64,000 bases of DNA from positions 65,106-129,105 of IMG/VR virus record IMGVR_UViG_3300011335_000900; one strand, written 5' to 3'. The position numbers and the translations under genes were made by a program. Origin of the DNA: a virus. Shown here piece after piece: positions 4,440 through 22,170 of this stretch. The notes beneath the pieces are model-generated. The model did not search any database and was not told the origin of the DNA. It worked only from the letters and a program-made list of their open reading frames with translations. Every line of letters begins with the position of its first letter. Within the stretch, counting starts at the first letter, position 1.

Positions 4440-5450
4440 ATGAAAAAACACGCGCGTGTAAAACAAAATCAAACAGCTGAAACACATTCAAATGAAACCT
4501 CAGGTGGTGCATCAATTGATAACACAATTACTGCATCTGCAGGAGTAGAAACGGGAGATGAAAATGCCTCAATTGGTATTGAAGTATCTGCTAAAACCGG
4601 AACTGAAGCATCAGTTGATGGTGGCTTAGATGGCAACAATGTATACGTAGAAGCTAATTATTCAGATACAACTGAAGTTCACGTTACAGTAGAGGGTCAA
4701 GCTAATGCTGAAGGATTTGGAGTTGGTGGTTCTGTAGATGCTTATGCAAAAACAGGAAACGAAGCAAGTCTTGAAGTGAGAGCAGGAGATGAAGGAGTAG
4801 TAGCAAATGGAAGTGTATCCGCAGGTACATCAGTAGGTGTAGATGGAGAAGGAACAGCTGATTTTAGAGAAGGTTCAGTAACAGCAGGCGCAGGTGTATC
4901 CGTTGGAGAGCAAGTTGGAATTGGTGGTGGTGGTGAAGCTACTTTTGTAGATGGCGTTGCAACAGTTGGTGTTAGTGGTGAGGTAGCAGTATTGCTTGGA
5001 GTTGATGTTGATTTAAGTGTAAGTGTTGATACAAACCAAATAGCTGAAGATGCTAGACTAGTGGCAGAAGAAGCAGAAAGAGCAGCAAATGAAGCAAGAG
5101 AATTAGCTGAAGCGGCTCAAAGAGAAGCGGATCGTTTAGTTTTAGAAGCACAACGATTAGCAGCAGAAGCAGCACAAAGAGAGGCTGATAGAATTGCAAA
5201 CGAAGCTAGAGCACAAGCAGAAGCAGCTCAAAGAGAAGCGGATCGTTTAGCAGCAGAATCAAGAAGAATTGCTGAAGAACAAGCAGCAGCTGCTCAAAGA
5301 GAAGCTGAACGTGTAGCTAGAGAAACCCAAGCGGCAGCTGAAGCAGCACAAAGAGAAACAGAAAGAGTAGCTAGAGAAACTCAAGATGCTTTAGAAAGAG
5401 CCGCTCGTGATGCTGAAAAATCAAAATGGAACCCTAAAAATTGGTTTTAA
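4440..5450 (+). CDS. Gly/Val-rich beta domain plus Ala/Glu/Arg coiled-coil repeat protein
   Basis: GASV/AGV-type repeats, then repeated AEAAQREADR. Confidence 0.75.
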   Translation: MKKHARVKQNQTAETHSNETSGGASIDNTITASAGVETGDENASIGIEVSAKTGTEASVDGGLDGNNVYVEANYSDTTEVHVTVEGQANAEGFGVGGSVDAYAKTGNEASLEVRAGDEGVVANGSVSAGTSVGVDGEGTADFREGSVTAGAGVSVGEQVGIGGGGEATFVDGVATVGVSGEVAVLLGVDVDLSVSVDTNQIAEDARLVAEEAERAANEARELAEAAQREADRLVLEAQRLAAEAAQREADRIANEARAQAEAAQREADRLAAESRRIAEEQAAAAQREAERVARETQAAAEAAQRETERVARETQDALERAARDAEKSKWNPKNWF

Positions 5451-5483
5451 TTAATATAAAAACAACTATAAAATAAAGTAAAA

Positions 5484-6077
5484 ATGGCAAAGTACACAAA
5501 AGAACAAGTTGAAGCAGCAGTAAAATCAAAAGGATATGTTTGGTTTGAAGGAGCAAAAGATTATGACGTAAACATCGTAGGTGTTAGAAACGCAGCAACT
5601 GGACAAACAGTAACAAACGTATTTGATGACGTTATTACAGTATCCTATAAAGTAGGAGGTGAATGGCAATATAAAGAATGGACAAACACAACCGACCCAG
5701 GTAAAAAAGGTGTTATGGAATTTCATAACAAAGGTGGTGTTGCACGTTTAGTAGAAGGTCAATACAGAGGATCTCATACAATTAGATTACATCAAGGGAA
5801 ATACGAGGCTTTAGGTCAAGCAAAAAACGTTAAAGTATATCGTGATGCTAATAAAGATATGAAATTTGATGAAACAAAAATCGATGAAGGTGTATTTGGA
5901 ATCAATATTCACAAAGCAGGAGTTGATTCTACTTATGTAGAAAATTGGTCAGAAGGATGTCAAGTATTTAAAAAAGCAAAGGATTTTGAAGAGTTTATGG
6001 CAATTTGTCGTAAAGCAAGAGATATTCATGGAAACTCATTTACATATACTTTGATTGAATCAACAGATATTAAATAG
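5484..6077 (+). CDS. Candidate endolysin with L,D-transpeptidase (YkuD)-like catalytic motif
   Basis: GINIH-x11-WSEGCQV His...SxGC motif; last gene of a holin-like cassette. Confidence 0.65.
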   Translation: MAKYTKEQVEAAVKSKGYVWFEGAKDYDVNIVGVRNAATGQTVTNVFDDVITVSYKVGGEWQYKEWTNTTDPGKKGVMEFHNKGGVARLVEGQYRGSHTIRLHQGKYEALGQAKNVKVYRDANKDMKFDETKIDEGVFGINIHKAGVDSTYVENWSEGCQVFKKAKDFEEFMAICRKARDIHGNSFTYTLIESTDIK

Positions 6078-6083
6078 ATATTT

Positions 6084-6112
6084 GGAGGCTTAAAAAAGCC
6101 TCCTTATTTTTT
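6084..6112 (+). terminator. Intrinsic terminator
   Basis: GGAGGCTT-aa-AAAAGCCTCC hairpin followed by a T-rich tract. Confidence 0.7.
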
Positions 6113-6116
6113 CTAT

Positions 6117-7130
6117 ATGAAACAAAAATTTTTACCTTGGTTCCTATTGTTTTGCGCAGTAGGACTATCTTTAACAGCTGCTTATTATAGCGTTATGGGA
6201 TTATCAATCCTATTTGCAAGCGTAGCTATCCCTGTAATGGTAATGGGTTCATTTTTAGAGTTATCTAAAATAGCGATTACAACATACTTACACGATCAGT
6301 GGAAAAAAACATACACTATGTTAAAAGTGTATTTAACTACTGCTTTAGTAATTCTATCATTTATAACTTCTCTAGGAATTTATGGACTATTAACTACTGG
6401 ATTTCAAGAAAATATATCTAAACTTGAAATTGGTGGAAAAGAGGTTGCAAATGTTCAATTAAAAAGAGATCGATTTAATGAAATTAAAAAAGAATATACT
6501 TTAGAAAAAACTACATTAGATAAGGACATTTCACAACTTAGAAATGCACTATCAACAAATACTACAACCCAAACTGTAGACAAAAAAACAGGTCAAGTTA
6601 TAAGCAAAGCAAATACAGGAAATCGTAAAGCATTTGAATCACAATTAACATTAGCTTTAGAAAATAAAACAAAAATCTCTACAAAAATAGAAGCACTAAA
6701 CGATAGTTTAACTAACTTAGATATCCAGGTGTTAAATATGGAATCTAAATCTCAATTAGGGAACGAACTAGGTGCTATTAAATATGTAAGTGAGCTCACG
6801 GGAATGCCTATTAAAAAAACAGCAAATATATTTATTTTGCTTATTATTTTTGTATTTGATCCATTAGCTATTATACTTGTAATTGCTACAAATCAATCAT
6901 TTGAAAATTTAAAACCAAAACTTAATATTTATGGAGAACCAAAACCTACTCCAATAACTCAAGAATATCAACCAGATCCTATTATTGAACAAAAAAGACA
7001 AAATATAATAAAAGAAATAGAAAAAATCCAAAATAGTAGCAAAGGATCTAGCTTTTCTAGAAGTTCAGCATTAAATACTCTTAATAACAGATTATCTTCA
7101 TTAAACGATGATAACACAAAGACATATTAA
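6117..7130 (+). CDS. Multi-TM protein with long coiled coil
   Basis: Three N-terminal TMs, heptad-rich middle, C-terminal TM IIFVFDPLAI. Confidence 0.75.
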   Translation: MKQKFLPWFLLFCAVGLSLTAAYYSVMGLSILFASVAIPVMVMGSFLELSKIAITTYLHDQWKKTYTMLKVYLTTALVILSFITSLGIYGLLTTGFQENISKLEIGGKEVANVQLKRDRFNEIKKEYTLEKTTLDKDISQLRNALSTNTTTQTVDKKTGQVISKANTGNRKAFESQLTLALENKTKISTKIEALNDSLTNLDIQVLNMESKSQLGNELGAIKYVSELTGMPIKKTANIFILLIIFVFDPLAIILVIATNQSFENLKPKLNIYGEPKPTPITQEYQPDPIIEQKRQNIIKEIEKIQNSSKGSSFSRSSALNTLNNRLSSLNDDNTKTY

Positions 7131-7144
7131 TATTTATATGTGAT

Positions 7145-10006
7145 ATGGCTGAACAAATTAAAAGAAAAGTTCCAATCCAGTGGGTTCAAACTATAAAAGA
7201 TGATGGAACCTATGAATTTACTCCTGATCCTAACGTATATTCTACAGAAAAAAATGTACCTTCAACAAACGTAATTACTTTACAAAGTACTGTAATTGAT
7301 GGTATTGATACTACTAATAGATTTTTATATAACTCTGCAGGAACTGCAGTATTATCTTGGGAAAGTTTAAATTTAACAGATCAATATGGTGTTGGAAGTG
7401 TAGATTGGGGAGGAAGAGTCCTAGTATCTACAGGTGGTAATAGAGTATTAAATTGGCAAAATGATTTAAATCTCATTTCTCCTGTATACTATACAAGTGA
7501 AATTGTAAACATTACTCAAAATCTTTTTTCTGCAACATCATCATATGCAGGAAAAACAATTCAAGGTTCATCCTCAGCTGCTTTATATGATGTTGTAGCT
7601 TATGATAAAGATACATTTACTTGGAATCCAGTAGCTACAAAATCAACCCAAGCTACATATGTTTTAGGTATTTGGCTTCCGGGCAATCTTGTATTATTAG
7701 AAGGAGAATTAGTGGTACATGATGATTATGGAACTTTTGGTCCTTATATAGCAGGTCATATAGGAGGGGCTCCAATATATTTACAATCAGATGGAGTAGG
7801 TGTAATGGATTGTACTCCCCCAACAGTCTCACCAAATATAGTTAGAGTTTTAGGATATACCTACTATAAAAACACAACATCAGGAGGTGATTGGATCATG
7901 AAATTTTCTCCACAGGATTATGTATCTTCTCCCACTATTCCTGCAAGTGCATCATATGCAACTAGTGCTTCATATGCTCTAACAGCCCAAACTTTATTAG
8001 GATCAGTTACTAGCGCATCATATGCAACTAGTGCTTCATTTGCTTTAACTGCTTCATTTGTAAGAACAGCACAAACGGCTTCATATGTTCAAAATGCTAT
8101 AAGTTCAAGTTTTGCTACAACAGCATCTTACGTTCAAAATGCTCAAACGGCATCATTTGTTCAAAATGCACAAACAGCAAGCTATGTTTTAAATGCAGTA
8201 AGTTCAAGCTTTGCTTCAACTGCTTCATTTGTTCAAACGGCTTCATATGTAGAAACATCCCAAACAGCTTCATACGTTTTAAATGCAGTAAGTTCAAGCT
8301 TTGCTTCAACTGCTTCATTTGTTCAAACGGCTTCATACGTTTTAAATGCTCAAACGGCTTCATACGTTTTAAATGCTATAAGTTCAAGCTTTGCTTTAAC
8401 AGCATCTTACGTTCAAAATGCTCAAACAGCATCTTATGTTCAAAATGCACAAACCGCTTCATTTGTTCAAAATTCAATAAGTTCAAGCTTTGCTTCAACA
8501 GCATCTTACGTTCAAAATGCACAAACAGCATCTTATGTTCAAAATGCTCAAACGGCATCATTTGTTCAAAATGCTCAAACGGCTTCATACGTTTTAAATG
8601 CTATAAGTTCAAGCTTTGCTACAACGGCTTCATTTGTTGTAAGTGCTTCATATGCTCAAACTGCTTCATATGTTAATACACTTAACCAAACTGTATTAAT
8701 AACTGGTTCATTAACAGTAGGTGCAACTTCTGCAGGAGCTAGCGAAAACACACTAACTTTAGGAGCTCGTGATGCTGCTAATGAAGGTGGACAAATAGGA
8801 TTTAATGCCCCTGGAGGAACATATACCTCAGCATCATTTATTGATAACTGGCAAAATAAAGCTAGAATATTAAAAGGAAATAATACTACAAGTACCGGAT
8901 TAATAGCTCAGTGGGATATACATACCACTCAAATGCAACTTGCAGGATATACAGCAGCCTCTTCCTTTCCAGGAACTGCAACAGCTAATTTAGCAGTAGA
9001 TTCTGGTGGAAATGTTATAACGGTATCAACAACAGGAGGAACAGTTTTCCCATATGTAGGAAACGCAGTAATAACTGGATCTTTAACTACCACAGGTATA
9101 ATTTATGCCCAACCAAATGGAGGTATGTACTTCCAAGGTGGTGATGATGCTGCACTATATGATATTAACGTATCAAACCATATGGGTATATATGGGGTGC
9201 AGGATTCTACAATAGCTTCTATTAAATTAGGAAGTGGTGGTGGAATCATATCAGGTAAAAGCAACAATATTGGGATTGGTACTATTAACCCCACCTCCGC
9301 TTCTTTCCAAGTAAATGGAAATGTTTGGGCAAATTCATTTACAGGAAGTTTATTAGGTACCGCTTCATATGCTTCTCAAGCACTATCAAGTTCATATGCT
9401 TTAAGCGCATCATATGCTTTAAATGCAACTACATCATCTTATGCTTTAAATACTTTAAGTTCTTCATATGCTCAAACCGCCTCATTTGTTCAAAATACAA
9501 TATTTAATCCACGATTAGTAGGATTTTCTGTAGCAAATGGCACTACTATAACAGGACCGGGTTCAACAAGTCCTAGAATATCTACTGAAATTACAATCCC
9601 TGCAGGTACACTAGCAACTAATTCAATTATTGAAATGATATGGATGTCAATTAGACTTTCAGGGGCAGGCGGAACAATTCAATCTGCAGTTTATTTAAGT
9701 ACTAGTAGTGGAACACTTGGTAGTAGTCCAACAGTAGGATCAACTTTACTAGCTACAGGAGCAAATATGATTTCAACAAATGTTATTGTAAAAAATGTTA
9801 GAGATCTTAATAAACAAAGTACTAGTGGAACAGTAGCAAATGCCGCTACTCAATATGGTTCAGATTTTGGTCTTCAAACAGTTGTAACATCATTTACAAT
9901 TAATAATTCTAGTACATTATATCTTCAATTTTGTGTTTCATCTACTGGACCAGCAGACACTTCTTGTATTAGAAATGTTAGAATAACAGAATATAAAGCA
10001 GTATAA
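7145..10006 (+). CDS. Fibre/adhesin-like virion protein with 9-aa Ser/Thr/Ala repeats
   Basis: Tandem ASYVQNAQT/ASYVLNAVSSSF; NIGIGTINP fibre-type motif. Confidence 0.7.
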   Translation: MAEQIKRKVPIQWVQTIKDDGTYEFTPDPNVYSTEKNVPSTNVITLQSTVIDGIDTTNRFLYNSAGTAVLSWESLNLTDQYGVGSVDWGGRVLVSTGGNRVLNWQNDLNLISPVYYTSEIVNITQNLFSATSSYAGKTIQGSSSAALYDVVAYDKDTFTWNPVATKSTQATYVLGIWLPGNLVLLEGELVVHDDYGTFGPYIAGHIGGAPIYLQSDGVGVMDCTPPTVSPNIVRVLGYTYYKNTTSGGDWIMKFSPQDYVSSPTIPASASYATSASYALTAQTLLGSVTSASYATSASFALTASFVRTAQTASYVQNAISSSFATTASYVQNAQTASFVQNAQTASYVLNAVSSSFASTASFVQTASYVETSQTASYVLNAVSSSFASTASFVQTASYVLNAQTASYVLNAISSSFALTASYVQNAQTASYVQNAQTASFVQNSISSSFASTASYVQNAQTASYVQNAQTASFVQNAQTASYVLNAISSSFATTASFVVSASYAQTASYVNTLNQTVLITGSLTVGATSAGASENTLTLGARDAANEGGQIGFNAPGGTYTSASFIDNWQNKARILKGNNTTSTGLIAQWDIHTTQMQLAGYTAASSFPGTATANLAVDSGGNVITVSTTGGTVFPYVGNAVITGSLTTTGIIYAQPNGGMYFQGGDDAALYDINVSNHMGIYGVQDSTIASIKLGSGGGIISGKSNNIGIGTINPTSASFQVNGNVWANSFTGSLLGTASYASQALSSSYALSASYALNATTSSYALNTLSSSYAQTASFVQNTIFNPRLVGFSVANGTTITGPGSTSPRISTEITIPAGTLATNSIIEMIWMSIRLSGAGGTIQSAVYLSTSSGTLGSSPTVGSTLLATGANMISTNVIVKNVRDLNKQSTSGTVANAATQYGSDFGLQTVVTSFTINNSSTLYLQFCVSSTGPADTSCIRNVRITEYKAV
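7940..8670 (+). repeat. Degenerate 27-bp coding tandem repeat (ASYVQNAQT)
   Basis: Repeated gcatcttacgttcaaaatgctcaaac-like units; boundaries approximate. Confidence 0.9.
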
Positions 10007-11229: not shown

Positions 11230-14200
11230 ATGGCAGGACCTTTCGATTTAACAGGTCAAGATATTGAAAACACATACCAACGTGTTCTTCAAACAGATGG
11301 AACAGATATATATGATGGAACCGGATCATTATTTACAATTTCAGGTAACATTAATACAGGATCGTTTGTAACTACATCTTCATTCAATTTATATACAGGT
11401 TCAAATACCTCACAATTTGCAGGTACTGCTTCATTTGCTCAAACAGCATCTTACGTTCAAAATGCTCAAACTGCTTCATTTGTACAAAATGCTCAAACGG
11501 CATCTTATGTTCAAAATGCTCAAACAGCTTCATACGTTTTAAATGCAGTAAGTTCAAGCTTTGCTCAAACAGCATCTTACGTTCAAAATGCTCAAACTGC
11601 TTCATTTGTACAAAATGCACAAACGGCATCTTATGTTCAAAATGCTCAAACTGCATCCTATGTTCAAAATGCTCAAACAGCATCTTACGTTCAAAATGCT
11701 CAAACTGCAAGCTATGTTTTAAATGCAGTAAGTTCAAGCTTTGCTACAACAGCATCTTATGCAGCTAATGGAGGTGTAACAAAAATAATAGCAGGTGGAG
11801 GAATCACAATATCCCCATCATTAGGTTTAGGAGATGTAACAATCAATTCCACAGCCGCAACCTTTAATACAGCTACTGGCTCATATGGTAGTTTTTACGA
11901 TACTGGATCACAAACAGCAACTAGTGCTACTGTAATCTATTCAATGTCTTTAAGTACAACAGATATTTCAAATGGAGTATTTGTTAGCGGATCTGATAAA
12001 ACTAGGGTATATGTTACTAATGCTGGAGTGTATAATTTTCAATTTTCAGCCCAGTTTAGAAATACTGATACTAGTGATGAACAGCATGTAGCGGTTTGGG
12101 TAAGAAAAAATAATATTTCATCTGCTAACGATATAGTTGATTCTAATAGTTTTATATCTGTTTCAAAAGCTAAAGGAGGAAATCCTGGAGAAACTATAGC
12201 AGCTTGGAACTTTTTCTTACAATTAGCAGCTGGAGATTTTATTCAATTATTATGGCATGCTGAAACAGCTAATGTAATTACACTAGAAACAATACCAGCG
12301 GGTGTTTCCCCAACCCATCCTAGAACCCCATCATTAATTTTAACAGCAAACCGAGTAGATACATTCCTTTCAAACACTGGATCATTTAGTGGATCATTTA
12401 CAGGAAATTTTACCGGATCTTTACTTGGAACCGCTACAACAGCAAGCTATGTTTTAAATGCTGTAAGTTCAAGCTTTGCTACAACTGCATCATTTGCTAC
12501 AACGGCTTCATATGCTTTAAATGCTTTAAGTGCCTCATATGCACCAGACACAACATTCCCATACACAGGTAGTGCTTTAATCACAGGATCTTTAGGTGTA
12601 ACAGGTTCAATTTCTACATCTGGTTCAAACGGAACCATTAATGGTTTATTTTTTAGCAGAGGTGGTGGAAATGTTTCCACAAATATCTCAATTGGTGCAA
12701 CAACAAACTTTGGCTCCTCTGCAACAGGTACAAATAATTTTGCAGCGGGAAGTGGATCTTTAAGCAAAAATACAACAGGGTGTTATAACACAGCAATAGG
12801 AAATGCTGCTTTATCTAAAAATACAACAGGAAAATACAATACAGCAATAGGGAGATATGCTTTATGTTCTAATACAACAGGAAACTGTAACATTGCTATA
12901 GGTCAAAGTGCTTTAATCTTAAATACAATAGGTGTAAATAATTTTGCAGCAGGAAGTAGTGCTTTATCTAATAATACAACAGGATGTTATAACACAGCAA
13001 TAGGACTAAATACTTTACGCGATAATACAACAGGATGCAACAACATAGCAATAGGAACTATTGCTTTACGTAATAATACATCAGGATCCAACAATACAGC
13101 AATAGGACGTGCTGCTTTACTCGATAATACAACAGGATCCAACAATACAGCAATAGGATGTTATGCTTTACGCTGTAATATAGTAGGAAACCACAATACA
13201 GCAATAGGATGTAGTGCTTTATATGCTAACACATCTGGATCAAATAATATAGCATTTGGCCAAAGTGCAGGAAAGTGTTTTTCCGGAAGTTCTTCAAACA
13301 ATATAGCTATTGGATTTGAAGCAGGTCCCTCAACATTAACTCAAGAAAGCAATAAATTATATATAGCATCGGGCTCCGGTACACCACTAATAAAAGGTGA
13401 TTTTGCTGCAAAAACAGTAGATATTTCTGGTTCTTTAACAGCAACATCCCTTACAGGTTCACTTTTAGGAACGGCCTCAAATGCTGTAACGGCTTCCTAT
13501 GTTTTAAATGCAGTAAGTTCAAGCTTTGCTTTAACAGCATCCTTTACTCCAAATGCTTTAATAACAGCATCTGTATCCTCAAATACAATTACATTCACTA
13601 AAGGTAATGGTACAACGTTCCCAATCACCGTAAGTGGTGGAGGAGGTGCAGCATTTCCTTTTACAGGATCCGCTTTAATCACAGGATCTTTAGGTATAAC
13701 AGGTTCAATTTCAACTAGTGGCTCAAACGGTACTATTAATGGTTTATTTTTTAGCACAGGTAATGGAAATGTTTCCACAAACATATCAATTGGTGCAACA
13801 ACAAACTTTAGTTCCTCTGCAACAGGTGGGTATAATTTTGCAGCTGGAAAGGGTGCTTTAAAACGTAACACAGCAGGAACCCATAATACAGCAATAGGAT
13901 ATAAAACTTTATGCTTTAATACAACAGGATTATTTAATACAGCAATAGGACGTTATACTTTATCCTATAATACAACAGGAAACTACAACACAGCAATAGG
14001 AAATAGTGCTTTATATTGTAACACTTATGGACACTCTAATACAGCAATAGGAAATCAAGCTTTACGAGCTAATACAACAGGATATCATAACATAGCTTTA
14101 GGAGGTGGTTTAGGATCAAACACTACAGGAGCCCACAATACAGCAATAGGAGAACGTGCTTTACGCAGTAATACAACAGGATACAACAATACCGCAATAG

Positions 14201-14496
14201 GAAATCGTGCTTTAATCAGTAATATAACAGGATATCATAACATAGCTTTAGGAGAGAGTGCTTTATCCTATAATACAACAGGACTTCACAATATAGCTTT
14301 AGGAGCTGGTGCCCAATCAGGTGATTACTCCTATTCAGTAATTTTAGGAAAAGATGCTACAGCAACAGCAAATAATCAATTTGTAGTTGGAGCACAATAT
14401 ACTAATGTAGGAACTGTTGTTGCCGCAAGTTGTAGCTCAACAAAATATTGGGAAGTTATGATTAATGGGGTTTTAGAAAAAATACTATTAGCTTAA
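11230..14496 (+). CDS. Fibre/adhesin with YadA-head-like 14-aa beta-roll repeats
   Basis: ASYVQNAQT repeats, a C1q/BclA-like segment (AGVYNFQFSAQ), two arrays of NTTGxxNTAIGxxAL. Confidence 0.75.
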   Translation: MAGPFDLTGQDIENTYQRVLQTDGTDIYDGTGSLFTISGNINTGSFVTTSSFNLYTGSNTSQFAGTASFAQTASYVQNAQTASFVQNAQTASYVQNAQTASYVLNAVSSSFAQTASYVQNAQTASFVQNAQTASYVQNAQTASYVQNAQTASYVQNAQTASYVLNAVSSSFATTASYAANGGVTKIIAGGGITISPSLGLGDVTINSTAATFNTATGSYGSFYDTGSQTATSATVIYSMSLSTTDISNGVFVSGSDKTRVYVTNAGVYNFQFSAQFRNTDTSDEQHVAVWVRKNNISSANDIVDSNSFISVSKAKGGNPGETIAAWNFFLQLAAGDFIQLLWHAETANVITLETIPAGVSPTHPRTPSLILTANRVDTFLSNTGSFSGSFTGNFTGSLLGTATTASYVLNAVSSSFATTASFATTASYALNALSASYAPDTTFPYTGSALITGSLGVTGSISTSGSNGTINGLFFSRGGGNVSTNISIGATTNFGSSATGTNNFAAGSGSLSKNTTGCYNTAIGNAALSKNTTGKYNTAIGRYALCSNTTGNCNIAIGQSALILNTIGVNNFAAGSSALSNNTTGCYNTAIGLNTLRDNTTGCNNIAIGTIALRNNTSGSNNTAIGRAALLDNTTGSNNTAIGCYALRCNIVGNHNTAIGCSALYANTSGSNNIAFGQSAGKCFSGSSSNNIAIGFEAGPSTLTQESNKLYIASGSGTPLIKGDFAAKTVDISGSLTATSLTGSLLGTASNAVTASYVLNAVSSSFALTASFTPNALITASVSSNTITFTKGNGTTFPITVSGGGGAAFPFTGSALITGSLGITGSISTSGSNGTINGLFFSTGNGNVSTNISIGATTNFSSSATGGYNFAAGKGALKRNTAGTHNTAIGYKTLCFNTTGLFNTAIGRYTLSYNTTGNYNTAIGNSALYCNTYGHSNTAIGNQALRANTTGYHNIALGGGLGSNTTGAHNTAIGERALRSNTTGYNNTAIGNRALISNITGYHNIALGESALSYNTTGLHNIALGAGAQSGDYSYSVILGKDATATANNQFVVGAQYTNVGTVVAASCSSTKYWEVMINGVLEKILLA
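11420..11760 (+). repeat. 27-bp coding tandem repeat shared with the 7145-10006 gene
   Basis: Same units as 7940-8670; boundaries approximate. Confidence 0.9.
12730..14310 (+). repeat. Two arrays of 42-bp coding repeats, each preceded by a duplicated ~170-bp block
   Basis: aatacaacagga..aatacagcaatagga..gcttta units; ~12556-12730 resembles ~13654-13828. Confidence 0.85.
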
Positions 14497-14524
14497 ATTT
14501 ATTCTTTTAAAATCTTTATATAGC

Positions 14525-14597
14525 AATCAAAAATAAATTAAAACAAAACAAACAACAAACACAACAAACAAAATAAACAAACTAAACAAACAAAACA
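14525..14597 (+). repeat. A/C-only low-complexity (CAAA/CAA)n leader
   Basis: aaaacaaaacaaacaacaaacacaacaaacaaaataaacaaactaaacaaacaaaaca directly before an ATG. Confidence 0.8.
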
Positions 14598-14870
14598 ATG
14601 GAATCTTTAACACCAAATCCTCAACAATCAATAAGCGCAGCTTTTGATTCAGTTAATTTAATTAACAATACTATTTTAGAAATAGTAAATGATAATAACA
14701 AATCTACCGTTACAAGAAATGTTCAACATTTAGAAATAATGTTATCAAAAGAATGGTTTTCAGAGGCATTAACACAACAACAATTAACAGATATTAATAG
14801 TTGTATAGCAAATGGAAATTCATACACTACAGAACCTATTATAGAAGATATAGTAACTGAAGAAGTATAA
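14598..14870 (+). CDS. Small fibre-associated hypothetical protein
   Basis: 90-aa ORF (AAFDSVNLI...RNVQHLEIML). Confidence 0.7.
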   Translation: MESLTPNPQQSISAAFDSVNLINNTILEIVNDNNKSTVTRNVQHLEIMLSKEWFSEALTQQQLTDINSCIANGNSYTTEPIIEDIVTEEV

Positions 14871-14935
14871 TTTTGTAAAAAACATTTGGAAATTTTAAAA
14901 AATTTCTGTATGTTAATTTATATTAAATAAAGTTT

Positions 14936-15757
14936 ATGGATAAAAAAATCTTTTACAATGCATCCCTCCCACGGGCGGGATCTACATTATTACAAAATGT
15001 AATGATGCAAAATCCTGAAATTTACTCAACTCCAACTTCAGGTATAATAGAATTTTTGTTAAACGCAAGAACTATTTATACAACAGGAGATGCCTTTAAA
15101 GCACAAGATGCTGAAACTATGAAAAATGGTTTTAAAGGTTTTTGCAAATATGGATTACAAGGTTTCTTTAAAGGAATAACAGAACGTCCTTACGTAATGG
15201 AAAAAAGTAGAGGGTGGTTAGGCCATTATGATTTTCTTGAATTCTTTAATGAAGAAAAACCAAAAATCATATGCATGGTGCGAGACTTAAGAGCGGTATT
15301 TGCCTCTATGGAAAAAAACCTACGTAAAAATCCAGATAAAGATTCACTTATTATCAATAATGTTGAATTAAAAAATATGACTACGGTTTCTCGTATAGAT
15401 CATTTTTCAATTTCTCCTCCAATTGGTCCTTCAATGGAATGGTTAGCAGATGTTGTTCATAGAGGATTAGATAAAAATATTTTATTTATCCGTTTTGAAG
15501 ATTTTACTACTGACCCAGAAACAGAAATTAAAAGAGTATACAATTATTTAGAATTACCATATTTTCAACACGATTTTAACAATGTTGAACAATTAACTCA
15601 AGAAAATGATATCATACATGGTATGTTTGGAGATCATAAAATTCAACCTAAAATAAAACCCGTAAAAGATGATTACATTGAAATTTTAGGTCAAGAACAA
15701 AGTGATCGATTAAGACAACATTACGATTGGTATTTTAAAGCATTTAATTATATTTAA
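14936..15757 (+). CDS. Sulfotransferase family protein
   Basis: 5'-PSB loop SLPRAGSTLL, EKSR, 3'-PB motif MVRDLRAVFAS, IRFEDF. Confidence 0.88.
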   Translation: MDKKIFYNASLPRAGSTLLQNVMMQNPEIYSTPTSGIIEFLLNARTIYTTGDAFKAQDAETMKNGFKGFCKYGLQGFFKGITERPYVMEKSRGWLGHYDFLEFFNEEKPKIICMVRDLRAVFASMEKNLRKNPDKDSLIINNVELKNMTTVSRIDHFSISPPIGPSMEWLADVVHRGLDKNILFIRFEDFTTDPETEIKRVYNYLELPYFQHDFNNVEQLTQENDIIHGMFGDHKIQPKIKPVKDDYIEILGQEQSDRLRQHYDWYFKAFNYI

Positions 15758-15765
15758 AAAAGGTT

Positions 15766-16191
15766 ATGATTTATTGGTTTACAGGCCAGCCAGGAGCTGG
15801 AAAAACAGTTTTAGCAAACGCGTTAAAACAGCAATTAGAAAATACATTTCACATAGATGGTGATGATTTACGAGATATATTTGATAATAAAGATTATAGC
15901 GAAGATGGACGCCGTAAAAATATTGCTTTAGCTCAACATATATCCCATTTCCTATCTAAAAAAGGATGTAATGTAGTTGTTTCTTTAGTTTCCCCATATA
16001 AAGATCAAAGAGAAGAATTTAAAGAAAAACTTGAAGATTTAATTCAAGAGATTTACGTTCATACAACAGATATTAGAGGTAGGGAAAATTTTCACGTAAA
16101 AGATTATCAACCCCCTACATCAAATTATATTAACATAGACACAACAAATATTTCAGTTGAAAATTGTATAAACAAAATTATAAAGTTATGA
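15766..16191 (+). CDS. cysC: Adenylyl-sulfate (APS) kinase
   Basis: WFTGQPGAGKT P-loop, IDGDDLR, YSEDGRRKNI, VSLVSPY. Confidence 0.88.
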   Translation: MIYWFTGQPGAGKTVLANALKQQLENTFHIDGDDLRDIFDNKDYSEDGRRKNIALAQHISHFLSKKGCNVVVSLVSPYKDQREEFKEKLEDLIQEIYVHTTDIRGRENFHVKDYQPPTSNYINIDTTNISVENCINKIIKL

Positions 16192-16592
16192 AAAATTGGA
16201 GTAAAAAAGTACACGTACAATCATCTCTAGAATCTAAGCCAAATCAATATGCAATGTTTATTGGTCGTTGGCAACCATTACATGATGGGCATAAAGCATT
16301 ATTTCAACAAGCTTTAGACGAAGGTAAAAATATCTGGATTGCAATCAGAGATGTTAAAACAACAGAATCTAACCCATTTAATGCTCAAGAAGTACTTGAA
16401 AATATTGGAAACGAATATAAAGAACTTTGTGGACAAGGTAAAGTTAAAGTTAGTATCATCCCTGACATATGTTCAGTTGAATTTGGTAGAGGAGTTGGCT
16501 ATGATATTATTGAACACACACCACCACAAGAAATACACGATATATCAGCAACAAAAGTTAGAGAACAAATGCGTAAAGAAGGAAAGTTATGA
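16188..16592 (+). CDS. HIGH-motif nucleotidyltransferase (cytidylyltransferase-like; possible minimal ATP sulfurylase)
   Basis: IGRWQPLHDGH, NPF, GRGVGY, ISATKVR; start chosen at AAAGTTATG. Confidence 0.75.
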   Translation: MKNWSKKVHVQSSLESKPNQYAMFIGRWQPLHDGHKALFQQALDEGKNIWIAIRDVKTTESNPFNAQEVLENIGNEYKELCGQGKVKVSIIPDICSVEFGRGVGYDIIEHTPPQEIHDISATKVREQMRKEGKL

Positions 16593-17035
16593 ATACAAAA
16601 TCTCAAAAATTCCAAATTAGATTTAATACAGTATCTACATGCGAAGAAGACCGTTGGCGTTTAATTACCGATGGTGAAGAAATTTTAGTATCTAACATTG
16701 TAGTAGATGGACACACATCCACTTCTAAAGATTGGATGCAAGATATCAAAGATTACAAATGGCATATCAGCTGTGAAGGATATGTTAGTATTAAAAATAA
16801 TATAGCATATATAGTAACCATCAAAGAGGAATCAGTGATGACTCGACACATATTAAAAACAATATCGTATCGTATTTTAGGAACATTAACTACAGTAACA
16901 ATAGCTTATTCTTTAGGTGCTTCTTTAGAAGTTTCATCTATGCTTGGAGTAGGTGAATTAGTACTTAAACCGGTAATTTATTTCTTTCACGAACGTGTTT
17001 GGTATAAGTACATTAGAATAGGATCAAAAAAATAA
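16589..17035 (+). CDS. Protein with C-terminal DUF2061-like membrane domain
   Basis: RHILKTISYRILGT...YFFHERVW. Confidence 0.7.
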   Translation: MNTKSQKFQIRFNTVSTCEEDRWRLITDGEEILVSNIVVDGHTSTSKDWMQDIKDYKWHISCEGYVSIKNNIAYIVTIKEESVMTRHILKTISYRILGTLTTVTIAYSLGASLEVSSMLGVGELVLKPVIYFFHERVWYKYIRIGSKK

Positions 17036-17038
17036 AAA

Positions 17039-17917
17039 ATGGAAGAAAAATACATAGTTTGGCACATTGAAGGTGGCCTAGGAAAAAACATTGCTGCTAC
17101 ATCATTATTAAGTAGCTTAAAAGAAAAACACCCAGATAGAAAAATAGTTGTAGTAGCTTCATACCCTGAAATATTTTTAAATTTACCCTCAGTTTACAGA
17201 GTATATAGATTAGGTTCAACCCAATACTTTTATGATGACTATATTAAAAATAAAGATACAATAGTATTTAAACATGAACCATACTATGAAACACAACATA
17301 TATTAAAAAACAAACATCTAATTGCAAATTGGTGTAAAATATTAGATATTGAATATACTTTTCAATCCCCTGTTTTAAATTTTAATTTTATACATCAATT
17401 AAATGCTACAAAATGGAATAGAGAAAAACCTATTTTACTTATCCAAACTAATGGAGGTATATTAAATAGTGATTTAACATATTCTTGGACAAGAGATTTA
17501 CCTTTTTATTTATCTACCCAAATAGCTAACAAATATAAAGAAACACATCATATTATACAAGTATGTAAACCTTCTTCTTTAAAAATAGAGGGAGCAGAAA
17601 TTATAGACTATACGCTATCAGCTATGGAATTATTTACATTATTAGCGGTAAGTGATAAACGTATATTAATTGATTCTAGTTTACAACATGCTGCGGTAGC
17701 ATTAAATGTTCCCTCTACTGTATTTTGGATTGGAACTTCACCAAAAAACTTTGGATATGCATTTCACAATAACATAATTGCAAATCCTCCTACAGATACA
17801 ACAAAATTAATTGATGCTTATTTATTTGATTATTCTTTTGAGGGAGTTACTCATGAATGCCCATATTACAGTTTAGAGGAAATGTTTGATGTTCCTAAAA
17901 TTTTAGAGAAAATTTAA
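17039..17917 (+). CDS. Glycosyltransferase-like protein (GT9/GT-B type)
   Basis: EGGLGKNI; IDSSLQHAAVAL..PSTVFW..T.P..FGY. Confidence 0.7.
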   Translation: MEEKYIVWHIEGGLGKNIAATSLLSSLKEKHPDRKIVVVASYPEIFLNLPSVYRVYRLGSTQYFYDDYIKNKDTIVFKHEPYYETQHILKNKHLIANWCKILDIEYTFQSPVLNFNFIHQLNATKWNREKPILLIQTNGGILNSDLTYSWTRDLPFYLSTQIANKYKETHHIIQVCKPSSLKIEGAEIIDYTLSAMELFTLLAVSDKRILIDSSLQHAAVALNVPSTVFWIGTSPKNFGYAFHNNIIANPPTDTTKLIDAYLFDYSFEGVTHECPYYSLEEMFDVPKILEKI

Positions 17918-17923
17918 GTAAAC

Positions 17924-17953
17924 TTGGCTTTTTAAAATACTTTTAGTATATTT
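17924..17953 (+). promoter_or_regulatory. Bacteroidetes-type sigma promoter TTGG-N18-GTATATTT (representative copy)
   Basis: Same 18-nt spacing at 14886, 18485, 21330, 22172, 23343, 26993, 28845, 32782, 34032, 38620, 42693, 43888, 50646, 60732, 62085, 62696, 63926. Confidence 0.8.
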
Positions 17954-17968
17954 AAGAAAATAAAGGTT

Positions 17969-18478
17969 ATGCTATTTACAACTTCTGATCCAAAAGTAGT
18001 ACTTAAAGAGATATCAAAATTACAACCCCTAAATTACAACCAATTTAAATGGTGGAGACGTTTTGACACCAAACTTAAACCATTACCACGTGGGGTTAAA
18101 TTTATTGATCGCATTAAAAACGGTGAATATGAATTTTCACATTACTACTGGCAATGGAAATTATCTGAGTTAGAAATCAACGAAAAATACATAGAATACA
18201 ACGGAGATATACAAAAATTACTTGAAAAAAACGGAGTAGATCTAGCTCGTAGAAAACGTTTAATAGAGGATTTCAATGCAGACGAAGCTAGTAAACTATC
18301 AAACCTTAAAAAAGGATTTTTACGTGAATTCGTAATGACAAAAGAAGAATATGAAGATCATATTACAGATTTTGATGGTACAACTGAAGAATTTTATATG
18401 TATTGTTTAAAAACATTTGATCGTTCTGGAAAACAAACAGAAAAACGTGGTCGTCCTAAAAAATCCGAAAATATTTAA
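17969..18478 (+). CDS. Hypothetical protein with C-terminal AT-hook-like KRGRPKK
   Basis: ORF after a promoter. Confidence 0.75.
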   Translation: MLFTTSDPKVVLKEISKLQPLNYNQFKWWRRFDTKLKPLPRGVKFIDRIKNGEYEFSHYYWQWKLSELEINEKYIEYNGDIQKLLEKNGVDLARRKRLIEDFNADEASKLSNLKKGFLREFVMTKEEYEDHITDFDGTTEEFYMYCLKTFDRSGKQTEKRGRPKKSENI

Positions 18479-18534
18479 AAAAACTTGGAAATATTAATTT
18501 TCTTTTGTATATTTTAATTATAAAAATAAAAGTT

Positions 18535-19636: not shown

Positions 19637-19881
19637 AAAAAGTAGTTTGTATCAATGATAGGAAGTTACCTGAGGGTGCTGAAGTTGTAAATGGAAAAGA
19701 ATATGAAGTTTTAGAAGAATTTTTAAACAATTATGATCAACGAGTGTTTATTATAGCTGGAATAAAAAATAAAGGAACAACTAAAATGGGACTACGTTGG
19801 ATAGGATATGATGCATCTCGTTTTGCAAACCTAGAATCAATAGCTATAGAATCATACGAACACGTATATGCAGAAAATTAA
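19627..19881 (+). CDS. Hypothetical protein
   Basis: KVVCIND... SH3-like small protein. Confidence 0.65.
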   Translation: MEMKKVVCINDRKLPEGAEVVNGKEYEVLEEFLNNYDQRVFIIAGIKNKGTTKMGLRWIGYDASRFANLESIAIESYEHVYAEN

Positions 19882-20290
19882 TATAAAAAGAGGAGTTATA
19901 GCAGGAAACTTTGATGTACTCCATCCAGGATACATTGCAATGTTTGAGGAGTGTAAAAAACACTGTGATAGATTAATAATATGTTTACATGAAGATCCCT
20001 CTATTGAACGACCAGAAAAACTTAAACCAATTTTACATTGGTCCGATCGAGTAAAAATTCTTTCTTCACTTAGACAAGTTGATTATGTATTTCCATATCA
20101 AACAGAGGAAGATCTATATGAAGCTTTAATTAAAGGAAACTTTGATGTTCGATTTTTAGGTGATGATTATATAGGAAAACCATTTACTGGAGATGATTTA
20201 GATATTCCTATACAGTATTTAAATAGAGATCATGGATGGTCAACAACAATGTACAAACAATTAATAGCAGATAGTTTAAACAAAAAATAA
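19868..20290 (+). CDS. Cytidylyltransferase (TagD-like)
   Basis: GNFDVLHPGY, KP, FLGDDY, RDHGWSTT. Confidence 0.85.
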   Translation: MQKINIKRGVIAGNFDVLHPGYIAMFEECKKHCDRLIICLHEDPSIERPEKLKPILHWSDRVKILSSLRQVDYVFPYQTEEDLYEALIKGNFDVRFLGDDYIGKPFTGDDLDIPIQYLNRDHGWSTTMYKQLIADSLNKK

Positions 20291-20742: not shown

Positions 20743-21348
20743 ATGAAAAAAAGTGGAATTTATAAAATTATAAACCCAAAAGGTGAAGTTTATATAGGAT
20801 GTTCACAAAATATCCATGTTAGATGGATGAATTACAAGAATAGTAGTAAAACTGAAAAACAACCAAAATTAAATCAATCTTTTGAAACCTATGGTTTTGA
20901 AAATCATGTATTTGAAGTGATAGAAGATATTGAAATTTTGCTAGCTCAACGAGAAAAATATTGGATTGAATTCTATAATTCATATGGTAAAGGCTTAAAT
21001 TCAAATCTTGGAGGAGGCGGAGTAGAAGCTCATAATGAAAATACTCGAAAACTTATTAGTGAAAAGGGAAAATTAAATGTAGGGAAAAGAAAAAATTCAC
21101 ATTGGAAAGGTAAAAATAGAAGTGAAGAATCTAAACTTAAAATGAGCCAATCTAAAAAAGGAAAATCCATCCCATCTAACAACAAACCTATCCTCCAATT
21201 CAGTAAACAAGGTCAATTCCTTCAAGAATATTCTAGCATTGAAGAAGCTGCTAGAAATATTAGTGGAAATCCTACAGCAATAAACAACGCTCTAAAAAAA
21301 GGAGAAAATGCTACATCTTCTGGTTATATTTGGAGATATAAAATTTAG
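20743..21348 (+). mobile_element. Free-standing GIY-YIG homing endonuclease with NUMOD-type DNA-binding modules
   Basis: GIYKI..VYIG, REKYWI, SEESKLKMS, C-terminal HTH. Confidence 0.9.
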
Positions 21349-21375: not shown

Positions 21376-22170
21376 ATGAAAAAAATAAAAATTAGCCACG
21401 AGGTGCCATTTTGTCTATTAACAAAAAGTCGAGAATTCAATGATTTTGATTATTGCTTGCCCCATTTAATGGATGAAAACGAAGAATATCGTGTATTTTT
21501 TCAAAATTCAAAAAATATAGCACGCTATATTGTAATGGACAATTCACTCCATGAACTTGGAGAAGCATATAGTACAGACCGTTTAATGTATTGGGTAAAT
21601 AAACTTGAACCAAATGAATTCATTGTACCTGATGTTTGGGAAGACTATACTGCTTCAGTTAGAAATGCAAAACAATGGGCAAACATCCAACTCCCAGAAA
21701 ATACAACTAAAGTAGCTGTTGTGCAAGCAAAAAGTTTACACGAAGCTAATTTATGTGTTCAAGCATATAAAGATTTAGGATACAAGAAAATTGCATTTTC
21801 ATATGGTGCTTCATATTATAATGATATTTGCCCACATCCAAATCAAGATTTAGGTAAAGCTATTGGAAGATTTATGGTAATTTCTACTATGTTTAGAGAT
21901 AAAACAATTACTAATACAGATCGAATCCATTTACTTGGAACTGCTTCCCCTATTGAATTTGGAATGTATAAAAATATGCCATTTATTGAATCTATTGATA
22001 CCTCAAATCCAATTATGGCAGCAATTGGTGAAATGCCATATACAAAAATGGGATTACATTTAAAACCAATGGCCAATATGAACAAACACCAAGATATAAG
22101 CAAAGAGTTTGTTAACGAGGATCTTGTAGATTTCAATGTTGAAATGTTTCGCACAATAAATGGACTTTAA
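21376..22170 (+). CDS. TGT/DpdA-like TIM-barrel protein (candidate 7-deazaguanine DNA transglycosylase)
   Basis: MDNS, VPDV, AVVQ, IHLLG, SIDTS motifs; upstream of queC/D/E/folE. Confidence 0.65.
   Translation: MKKIKISHEVPFCLLTKSREFNDFDYCLPHLMDENEEYRVFFQNSKNIARYIVMDNSLHELGEAYSTDRLMYWVNKLEPNEFIVPDVWEDYTASVRNAKQWANIQLPENTTKVAVVQAKSLHEANLCVQAYKDLGYKKIAFSYGASYYNDICPHPNQDLGKAIGRFMVISTMFRDKTITNTDRIHLLGTASPIEFGMYKNMPFIESIDTSNPIMAAIGEMPYTKMGLHLKPMANMNKHQDISKEFVNEDLVDFNVEMFRTINGL

Follow-up and report, generated by a model that had tools for sequence, protein, structure and literature searches.

How does a phage that encodes a sulfotransferase come by the activated sulfate that such an enzyme needs? 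This question is raised by five tightly spaced genes at positions 14936-17917 of a stretch of DNA 64,000 nucleotides in length from a large, uncultured phage (the window), which corresponds to bases 65106-129105 of the 129-kb IMG/VR virus record IMGVR_UViG_3300011335_000900 (estimated to be ~80% complete), has a G+C content of ~30%, and carries nearly all of its genes on the + strand. An earlier note on this DNA had read the five genes as a module in which a small HIGH-type nucleotidyltransferase (hereafter NT) serves as ATP sulfurylase, so that adenosine 5'-phosphosulfate (APS) and, through a neighboring APS kinase, 3'-phosphoadenosine 5'-phosphosulfate (PAPS) are produced by the phage itself. 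Judged from the gene sequences, a self-contained phage module for PAPS synthesis and sulfation is likely, and we explain it best by taking NT for a minimal ATP sulfurylase, a candidate function put forward here with moderate confidence. The five genes named in the earlier note are all present as open reading frames (ORFs):

14936-15757, + strand: sulfotransferase of the PAPS-dependent type, 273 aa (Pfam PF13469/PF00685)
15766-16191, + strand: lid-less P-loop kinase of the APS kinase family, 141 aa (PF01583)
16188-16592, + strand: NT, a HIGH nucleotidyltransferase, 134 aa from its ATG (PF01467)
16589-17035, + strand: DUF2061 membrane protein, 148 aa (PF09834), whose ATG overlaps the NT stop codon
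17039-17917, + strand: GT-B glycosyltransferase of the GT9 (heptosyltransferase) type, 292 aa (by match of its AlphaFold model)

The packing of these genes is operon-like. Only 8 bases separate the sulfotransferase gene from the kinase gene, the kinase stop and NT start codons overlap in an ATGA, the same is true for the NT stop and the start of the DUF2061 gene, and a 3-base gap precedes the glycosyltransferase gene; the NT frame itself opens upstream of its ATG, at TTG 16164. Contigs from metatranscriptome libraries (four runs from four studies, 90-99% alike) bridge the junctions between the sulfotransferase, kinase, NT, DUF2061 and glycosyltransferase genes; since DNA is possibly present in such libraries, these contigs cannot prove transcription, strand or a single transcript, and bins without coverage carry no meaning. 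A blastn comparison of positions 14500-18500 with 50,697 phage records gave no match.

The first gene product belongs to the PAPS-dependent sulfotransferases, because it scores above the cut-offs of two Pfam models across most of the domain (PF13469, Sulfotransfer_3, 53.4 vs. 27 bits, residues 10-209; PF00685, Sulfotransfer_1, 48.5 vs. 22 bits, residues 10-224). It also matches phrog_27463 (E 1.7e-38), and its nearest solved chain is StaL, a weak match (E 0.0016). The 141-aa kinase exceeds the cut-off of the Pfam APS_kinase model (PF01583, 65.1 vs. 21.1 bits, residues 2-101), its closest solved relatives are all APS kinases (8a8h, E 9.1e-15), and it keeps the P-loop, DGDxxR and Ser-Pro motifs when aligned with solved APS kinases and canonical homologues.

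The gene-neighborhood survey that the earlier note had called for gave a consistent picture. Relatives of NT occur in at least 597 IMG/VR contigs, and the flanks (up to 6 kb) of the best 80 loci (64-97% identity) were searched by tblastn with the window proteins. A kinase homologue was present in 78 of these 80 loci, a DUF2061 protein in 74, a sulfotransferase in 60 and the glycosyltransferase in 53, and the gene order varied around a fixed kinase-NT-DUF2061 core. This arrangement is far beyond chance.

Gene fusions tie the members of this core together even more closely. The PHROG family phrog_10255 (230 positions, named 'kinase') is a kinase-NT fusion, in which the first 89 positions cover the window kinase and positions 116-229 cover NT; hence, kinase and NT are a single protein in other phages. 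Twelve records of cultured phages, among them the Xylella phages Sano, Salvo and Bacata and the Stenotrophomonas phages DLP6, Bhz60 and Suzuki, carry such fusions with 32-42% identity. When 1.84 billion cluster representatives were searched without a profile, 1132 relatives of NT were recovered at E ≤1e-3, of which 459 also passed E ≤1e-10; among the best 149 ids, 49 were at least 185 aa long. Thirty-two of these long relatives contain the Pfam APS_kinase domain, many with scores of 150-230 bits; the kinase comes first in 20 and NT in 12 of them. The haloarchaeal 285-aa proteins to which NCBI gives the name 'adenylyl-sulfate kinase' have the same composition, APS kinase plus NT. Other long relatives join NT to DUF2061 (P0163), to a methyltransferase or to DUF6717 (one each), and when the DUF2061 part was used as the query for longer proteins, all three that were recovered combined DUF2061 with a canonical APS kinase. 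Kinase, NT and DUF2061 are thus linked pairwise by independent fusions.

Three side observations concern the surroundings of these genes. In the genome of Xylella phage Sano (L163, 1797-2474), a gene annotated as 'cysteine dioxygenase', and thus sulfur-related, lies ~3 kb upstream of the kinase-NT fusion. Several viral loci (e.g., L048 and L051) carry an insertion of 0.4-0.9 kb between the kinase and NT genes. In three proteins of 278-431 aa from other phages (P0001, P0005 and P0022), NT follows an N-terminal endonuclease-like part, which was recognized through a Pfam match to NUMOD3 in one of them and by eye in the others; the junction of the kinase and NT genes seems to be a site where mobile endonuclease genes insert.

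The pairing of kinase and NT extends to cells. At least 553 stretches of GTDB species genomes contain NT relatives, and the best 80 of these loci come mostly from Pelagibacteraceae, the others from Marinimicrobia, a marine group III (MGIII) archaeon, Saccharibacteria, Nomurabacteria, Omnitrophota, Planctomycetota, Acidobacteria, Woesearchaeota and a Haladaptatus plasmid. Searches with hidden Markov models built from the phage proteins located a kinase homologue adjoining or fused to NT in 71 of the 80 loci and a DUF2061 protein of the phage type in just three; five contigs of metagenome-assembled genomes (MAGs), possibly of phage origin, contain the module of the phage type in full. When 89 ORFs from eight cellular loci were annotated with Pfam, four of the loci (those of Marinimicrobia, Haladaptatus, Planctomycetota and Acidobacteria) proved to have sulfotransferases beside the kinase-NT pair, and the Marinimicrobia locus has two of them within a polysaccharide cluster. 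No sulfotransferase adjoined the pair in the remaining four loci (two from SAR11, one each from MGIII and Saccharibacteria). In the MGIII contig (L094, 7627-8390), the kinase and NT are 61 and 48% identical to those of the phage and are located between the genes for S-adenosylmethionine synthetase and serine hydroxymethyltransferase; the pair suggests a recent exchange between phage and cell.

If NT activates sulfate, its carriers might be expected to do without the two known types of enzymes for this step, Sat and CysDN. We examined 13 carrier genomes (G001-G010, G037, G213 and G221), two of which are finished (a 1.3-Mb Pelagibacter and a 6.3-Mb Haladaptatus genome). Sat scored above its cut-off in one of them (G010), and CysD in none. 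In the complete 1.3-Mb Pelagibacter genome, three sulfotransferases are present together with the kinase-NT pair, and both known sulfurylases are absent; sulfotransferase matches numbered two each in the MGIII and Woesearchaeota genomes and zero in the two genomes of the candidate phyla radiation (CPR). Two Marinimicrobia genomes of 1 Mb that are devoid of NT lack APS kinase, Sat and CysD as well; with NT carriers making up 3 of 81 genomes in a sample of this phylum, the numbers are too few for a contingency test.

The Pelagibacterales provided a larger sample of 81 genomes that are at least 85% complete (this sample includes the unpublished genome G145, which was only counted and on which no conclusion rests). 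NT is present in 64 of these genomes, Sat in three, a Sulfotransfer_3 match in 52 and an APS-kinase-family match in 66; the short kinase occurs in 61 of the 64 NT carriers. An ORF of the CysN/CysC type (613-639 aa) was detected in five genomes, each of them NT-negative (0/64 vs. 5/17, Fisher p 2.4e-4); that of genome G100 was confirmed as an EF-Tu GTPase plus APS kinase and sits beside a CysD-like gene. When NT, CysN/C and Sat are taken together as possible routes, sulfotransferases are found in 48 of the 69 genomes with any of them vs. 4 of the 12 without (p 0.023). The NT-less genome G100 is instructive in a second respect (L165; G100:C2:152000-163000, 4543-9118): its 153-aa short kinase gene overlaps a gene for a canonical Sat (147 bits), which is followed by genes for a 449-aa protein with a pyruvate-kinase barrel, a sulfotransferase and a permease of the TauE/SafE family. 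In this genome, the known sulfurylase Sat occupies the slot held by NT elsewhere.

These distributions bear on a first alternative, in which the Sat or CysDN enzymes of the host supply APS, the phage boosts only its conversion to PAPS, and NT is an accessory protein (for the handling of APS or of 3'-phosphoadenosine 5'-phosphate (PAP), or for regulation of the kinase) without any part in sulfate activation. The host could have CysDN; some NT carriers also possess Sat; and the main text of a study of freshwater phages describes cysC as an auxiliary gene on its own (PMC10914622). One NT relative is joined to a DHH/DHHA1-like domain, by a match that is weak and below the cut-off (23.6 bits). DHH/DHHA1 is the fold of some PAP phosphatases. 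Yet 12 of the 13 cellular carriers have no Sat, and none has CysD above the cut-off, while an APS kinase and often sulfotransferases are present; moreover, NT and CysN/C exclude each other in the Pelagibacterales, and Sat stands in the NT slot of G100. We therefore regard a supply of APS by the host, with NT as an accessory, as unlikely.

Another set of observations weighs against the assignment of NT as an ATP sulfurylase. Twenty of the 80 viral loci have no sulfotransferase inside the flanks, and none is annotated in the examined stretches around the fusion gene of Xylella phage Sano and Stenotrophomonas phage DLP6. The cellular genomes used are mostly incomplete MAGs or single-amplified genomes. 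Genome G010 is redundant, since it holds an NT-APS kinase, Sat and a probable split CysD (201 bits), and the Pelagibacterales genomes G122 and G136 carry NT and Sat together. Taken alone, NT is not associated with sulfotransferases in the Pelagibacterales (43/64 vs. 9/17, p 0.39), and four genomes of this order have a sulfotransferase match with no sulfate-activation route found. The phage kinase remains below the cut-off of TIGR00455, the NCBIfam equivalog model for CysC (78.2 vs. 138.7 bits), and is devoid of ~14 lid residues of canonical APS kinases (L089 and P0077). As to NT itself, it is the best match to the Sat model PF01747 in the whole virus record, at 8.4 bits (E 0.08; cut-off 24.3) and over profile positions 29-67 only. 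A profile of the NT family is closest to archaeal nicotinamide mononucleotide (NMN) adenylyltransferases (NMNATs; 1f9a, E 2e-12), followed by 1ej2, 1hyb, NadM and NadR, and the 62 solved sequences that match this profile at E ≤1 do not include an ATP sulfurylase. A structure search independent of Foldseek likewise ranked phosphopantetheine adenylyltransferase (PPAT; Z 9.8), the NMNAT 1f9a (Z 9.7), NadM (Z 8.7) and NadR (Z 8.3) above Sat as matches of the NT model.

In a separate search, one NT relative (P0128) gave a near-full-length match to the Sat model below threshold (18.8 bits); it was discarded, since the sequence is an internal duplication and probably an assembly artefact.

Is NT then simply a working NMNAT for NAD salvage, linked to a kinase in the manner of NadR, which combines an NMNAT with a P-loop ribosylnicotinamide kinase? 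Its top sequence and profile matches (NMNAT, NadM and NadR) and the GRxQPxHxGH, NPF and ISxTxxR motifs that it has in common with archaeal NMNATs speak for such a function. Its scores, however, fall far below the cut-offs of the NMNAT models (TIGR01527, 30.2 vs. 181.2 bits; NF002243, 32.7 vs. 127 bits), and the matches extend over the N-terminal half only. NT aligns to residues 4-63 and 110-138 of 1f9a, and the stretch between these conserved blocks is halved, from 46 residues in 1f9a (64-109) to 23 positions in the NT profile (68-90); NT thus does not have the full-length middle segment of an NMNAT, the segment that binds the acceptor NMN. True NMNAT-like matches in Halobacteria are separate proteins of 171-227 aa that match the N-terminal half of the profile with E ~1e-11, vs. 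~1e-36 for members of the NT family. Furthermore, the partner kinase belongs to the APS kinase family, and the neighbors are sulfotransferases rather than NAD genes. Collectively, these data make a role of NT in NAD salvage very improbable.

The same Halobacteria sample led us to reject NT as the general sulfurylase of haloarchaea: it is found in 2 of the 61 genomes sampled, and the other seven matches are NMNAT-like.

NT scores above the Pfam cut-off of the CTP_transf_like family (PF01467, 28 vs. 21 bits), and an alignment of 36 standalone members of its family contains ten invariant residues (G26, R27, H32, H35, G100, R101, G104, S120, T122 and R125). Among these are both histidines of the HxxH motif of the HIGH-type fold (His32 and His35) and a Gly-Arg-x-x-Gly loop (G100, R101 and G104) between the HxGH and ISxTxxR motifs. 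In Sat, the sulfate-binding loop is Arg-containing and Gly-rich. Foldseek searches with the AlphaFold model of NT (pLDDT 92.3, pTM 0.83) returned nothing at E ≤0.001; the best hit was NadM (2qjo, 3e-3). The ATP sulfurylase 1v47 aligned to the model over 116 residues with a Z of 7.5, and other sulfurylases (2gks, 1j70 and 4maf listed) with ~6; the HIGH fold is common to the whole superfamily, and Z values in this range (7.5-9.8) do not discriminate function. According to the model, the fold of NT is that of the HIGH superfamily, which includes Sat, but is nearer to NMNAT, and the fold does not tell the acceptor. The earlier note had argued from the membership of Sat-type sulfurylases in this superfamily. 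The shared fold holds up; the nearest relatives are NadM, archaeal NMNATs and PPAT instead, and NT fails the Sat Pfam model. The shortened middle segment and the distinctive Arg/Gly loop of NT would suit a small anionic acceptor.

Such an acceptor need not be sulfate. NT might adenylylate another anionic or phosphorylated compound, to which the kinase then adds a 3'-phosphate, following the logic of PPAT and dephospho-CoA kinase and yielding a product other than PAPS. PPAT is the top structural match of NT, the kinases of the phage and of SAR11 are divergent and lid-less, and in SAR11 the pair is found among CoA-related and one-carbon genes and not beside sulfotransferases. On the other hand, many of the fusion partners of NT are full canonical APS kinases with the high scores given above, sulfotransferases are recurrent neighbors in phages and in four phyla, and the kinase-NT pair is complementary with CysN/C. 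A different product is hence quite unlikely in our view. The candidate role of NT as the minimal ATP sulfurylase of a complete PAPS route, as the earlier note had proposed, is favored by the fusions, the neighborhoods, the complementarity with CysN/C and the Sat gene in the NT slot of G100.

The last two genes of the module connect it to the membrane and to sugars. As the earlier note had suspected, the fourth gene product is a DUF2061 protein (PF09834, 59.3 vs. 23.1 bits, residues 88-138 on positions 1-51 of the 52-position profile). It consists of a variable N-terminal domain (16589-16843), without a usable match in the protein atlas, and of the two-helix DUF2061 domain (~16850-17002). The N-terminal domain is optional, because close relatives lack the first ~85 codons: in three of the RNA-library runs (X2, X3 and X4), the 251 bases at 16593-16843 are replaced by 17 others, and several IMG/VR loci have DUF2061 ORFs of just 69-84 aa. 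The 292-aa protein, which the earlier note had called a glycosyltransferase, has no Pfam match of its own, and its profile found nothing below E 1 among sequences in the PDB; weak matches to Glyco_transf_9 (PF01075) were present in 10 of 19 homologues (best E 3.1e-5). Its AlphaFold model (pLDDT 83.4) adopts the two-domain GT-B fold and is closest to GT9 structures (3tov_A, E 3.5e-10, TMq 0.68; 1psw, WaaF, 8.7e-10; then WaaC, 2h1h, and TibC, 4rap), so that the model upholds the assignment.

How would these five proteins work together? We propose that they form one phage glycan-sulfation module that also provides the sulfate donor. NT, related to archaeal NMNATs but cut down in size, would form APS by moving the AMP moiety of ATP to sulfate, and the translationally coupled lid-less kinase would phosphorylate the 3'-OH of APS, thereby pulling the unfavorable first step. 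ATP sulfurylation is strongly unfavorable: CysDN drives it with the hydrolysis of GTP, and in other known systems APS kinase and pyrophosphatase remove its products. The fusion, overlap or adjacency of NT with an APS kinase fits this need. The two-helix DUF2061 protein would tether this small, two-gene PAPS synthase to the inner membrane; as a two-helix membrane domain that is fused to either partner, it would place PAPS synthesis there. GT9-type enzymes and many polysaccharide sulfotransferases act at the membrane. The sulfotransferase would then draw on PAPS to modify a sugar that the GT9-fold glycosyltransferase has put in place; this sugar might be a heptose carried by a lipid-linked or protein acceptor. 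Since the GT9 fold includes the heptosyltransferases of the lipopolysaccharide core, it points to the host envelope as the sulfated target; because it also includes the protein heptosyltransferase TibC, and the module lies behind a repeat-rich fiber gene, it points to the fiber as well, and the 1088-aa fiber as a sulfation substrate is speculation on our part.

The surroundings of the module comprise the following features:

11230-14496, + strand: tail fiber/spike, 1088 aa, with short tandem peptide repeats (PHROG matches)
14598-14870, + strand: 90-aa ORF whose membership in the module is uncertain (a homologue accompanies the module in 19 of the 80 viral loci)
14871-14935, no strand: 65-base A+T-rich spacer 5' of the sulfotransferase gene, in which the earlier note had placed a promoter
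19868-20290, + strand: second small HIGH nucleotidyltransferase, 140 aa, similar to RfaE domain II and TagD (PF01467, 46.2 bits)

That the module stands next to fiber genes, as the earlier note had it, is borne out by the 1088-aa ORF on its 5' side, which matches virion-structural PHROGs (phrog_23837, E 6.9e-76; phrog_4636, tail spike, E 8.9e-54); 18 of the 80 viral loci have a fiber homologue upstream. Close to its N-terminus, the 1088-aa protein contains a series of tandemly repeated 9-residue peptides, and it has two Asn/Thr/Gly-rich blocks of short repeats (residues ~530-706 and 936-1043), which are the part matched by the tail-spike PHROGs. The 90-aa ORF has no match in Pfam, NCBIfam or PHROG. 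The promoter proposed at 14886 found no support. A sigma-70 scan of the spacer yielded a single 9/12 match (14895-14924), and sites of this kind are barely more frequent than in shuffled sequence (41 in 5 kb vs. 30.0 +/- 5.0). No copy of the Bacteroidota-type promoter motif is present in 14871-14935, and this motif is not enriched in the window (9 vs. 5.93 +/- 2.73 expected, with 9 reached in 16 of 100 shuffles); a word count of the spacer gave A+T-rich noise and no recurring word.

The second HIGH enzyme matches TIGR02199 (60.7 bits) and TIGR01518 (58.2 bits), both below the cut-off, and phrog_7878 (E 9.4e-35). It was present in none of the 80 related viral loci within the flanks and is thus not linked to the module. 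Its resemblance to RfaE domain II and glycerol-3-phosphate cytidylyltransferase indicates that it could supply a donor of the ADP-heptose or CDP-glycerol type, possibly for the GT9-like enzyme. Further downstream, a 201-aa ORF (20743-21348) resembles by eye a homing endonuclease of the GIY-YIG type, and a 264-aa protein (21376-22170) matches phrog_19058, a family of unknown function (E 3.5e-38), and, below threshold, DUF6610.

Our observations can be condensed into one joint claim: a third, minimal class of ATP sulfurylase, derived from NMN adenylyltransferases, ~115 residues in size and always accompanied by an APS kinase, would be the sulfate activator of most sampled SAR11, of streamlined Marinimicrobia, of some CPR, DPANN and haloarchaeal lineages and of hundreds of phages, in which it would be tethered by DUF2061 and feed a sulfotransferase acting on a phage-installed, heptose-type sugar of the fiber or the host envelope. 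We hold this claim as a whole to be about evenly poised between right and wrong. If it is true, a third sulfurylase type of barely more than 100 residues changes the reading of sulfur genes in metagenomes. SAR11 bacteria are usually described as unable to use sulfate, and the presence of NT in the large majority of the sampled Pelagibacterales, many of them with sulfotransferases, contrasts with this view. Likewise, the phage 'cysC', now counted as assimilatory sulfate reduction, would belong to a pathway for surface sulfation, and a self-supplied sulfation route beside fiber genes would suggest that sulfated glycans play a part in adsorption or in superinfection exclusion. The claim of a minimal sulfurylase concerns one small soluble protein and is directly testable. 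Our literature searches found no description of an NMNAT-like ATP sulfurylase, of a function for DUF2061 or of this phage module.

How, finally, does the module compare with known systems? According to the main text of the study mentioned above, cysC homologues occur in freshwater phages with larger genomes, are transcribed in situ and are interpreted as part of assimilatory sulfate reduction; the terms 'sulfotransferase' and 'adenylyltransferase' are absent from this main text (PMC10914622). Compared with cysC as portrayed there, the kinase studied here belongs to a unit with NT and DUF2061, to which a sulfotransferase and a glycosyltransferase are linked. In structure, the 292-aa protein comes closest to the GT9 heptosyltransferases (WaaC and WaaF) and to TibC, a protein heptosyltransferase, at an identity of just 11-14%. 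PPAT and dephospho-CoA kinase offer a parallel, since they too pair a small HIGH adenylyltransferase with a P-loop kinase that modifies the 3'-OH of adenosine; the sequence similarity of NT to PPATs, in contrast, is marginal (E 0.005 or worse in the search of solved sequences with the NT profile), and its partner kinases are of the APS kinase family. The archaeal and NadM-type NMN adenylyltransferases (TIGR01527 and NF002243; 1f9a, 1ej2 and 2qjo) are the closest family to NT by both sequence and structure, from which it differs by a middle segment of about half the length, an invariant Arg/Gly loop of its own, and APS kinase, DUF2061 and sulfotransferases as genomic partners. The two-step chemistry that we propose here is known from bifunctional PAPS synthases and from Sat-CysC fusions (metazoan PAPSS1/2, 1x6v; Aquifex aeolicus, 2gks), in which an APS kinase is likewise coupled or fused to an adenylyltransferase of the HIGH fold; their sulfurylase domains align to the NT model with Z values of 5.7-7.5, and the NT-kinase fusions in both domain orders are a further likeness. 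Unlike these enzymes, the phage NT fails the Sat model, its core of ~115 residues compares with a Sat catalytic domain of ~200 or more plus extra domains, its kinase is lid-less, and it comes with a DUF2061 membrane partner and as split genes coupled through ATGA overlaps.

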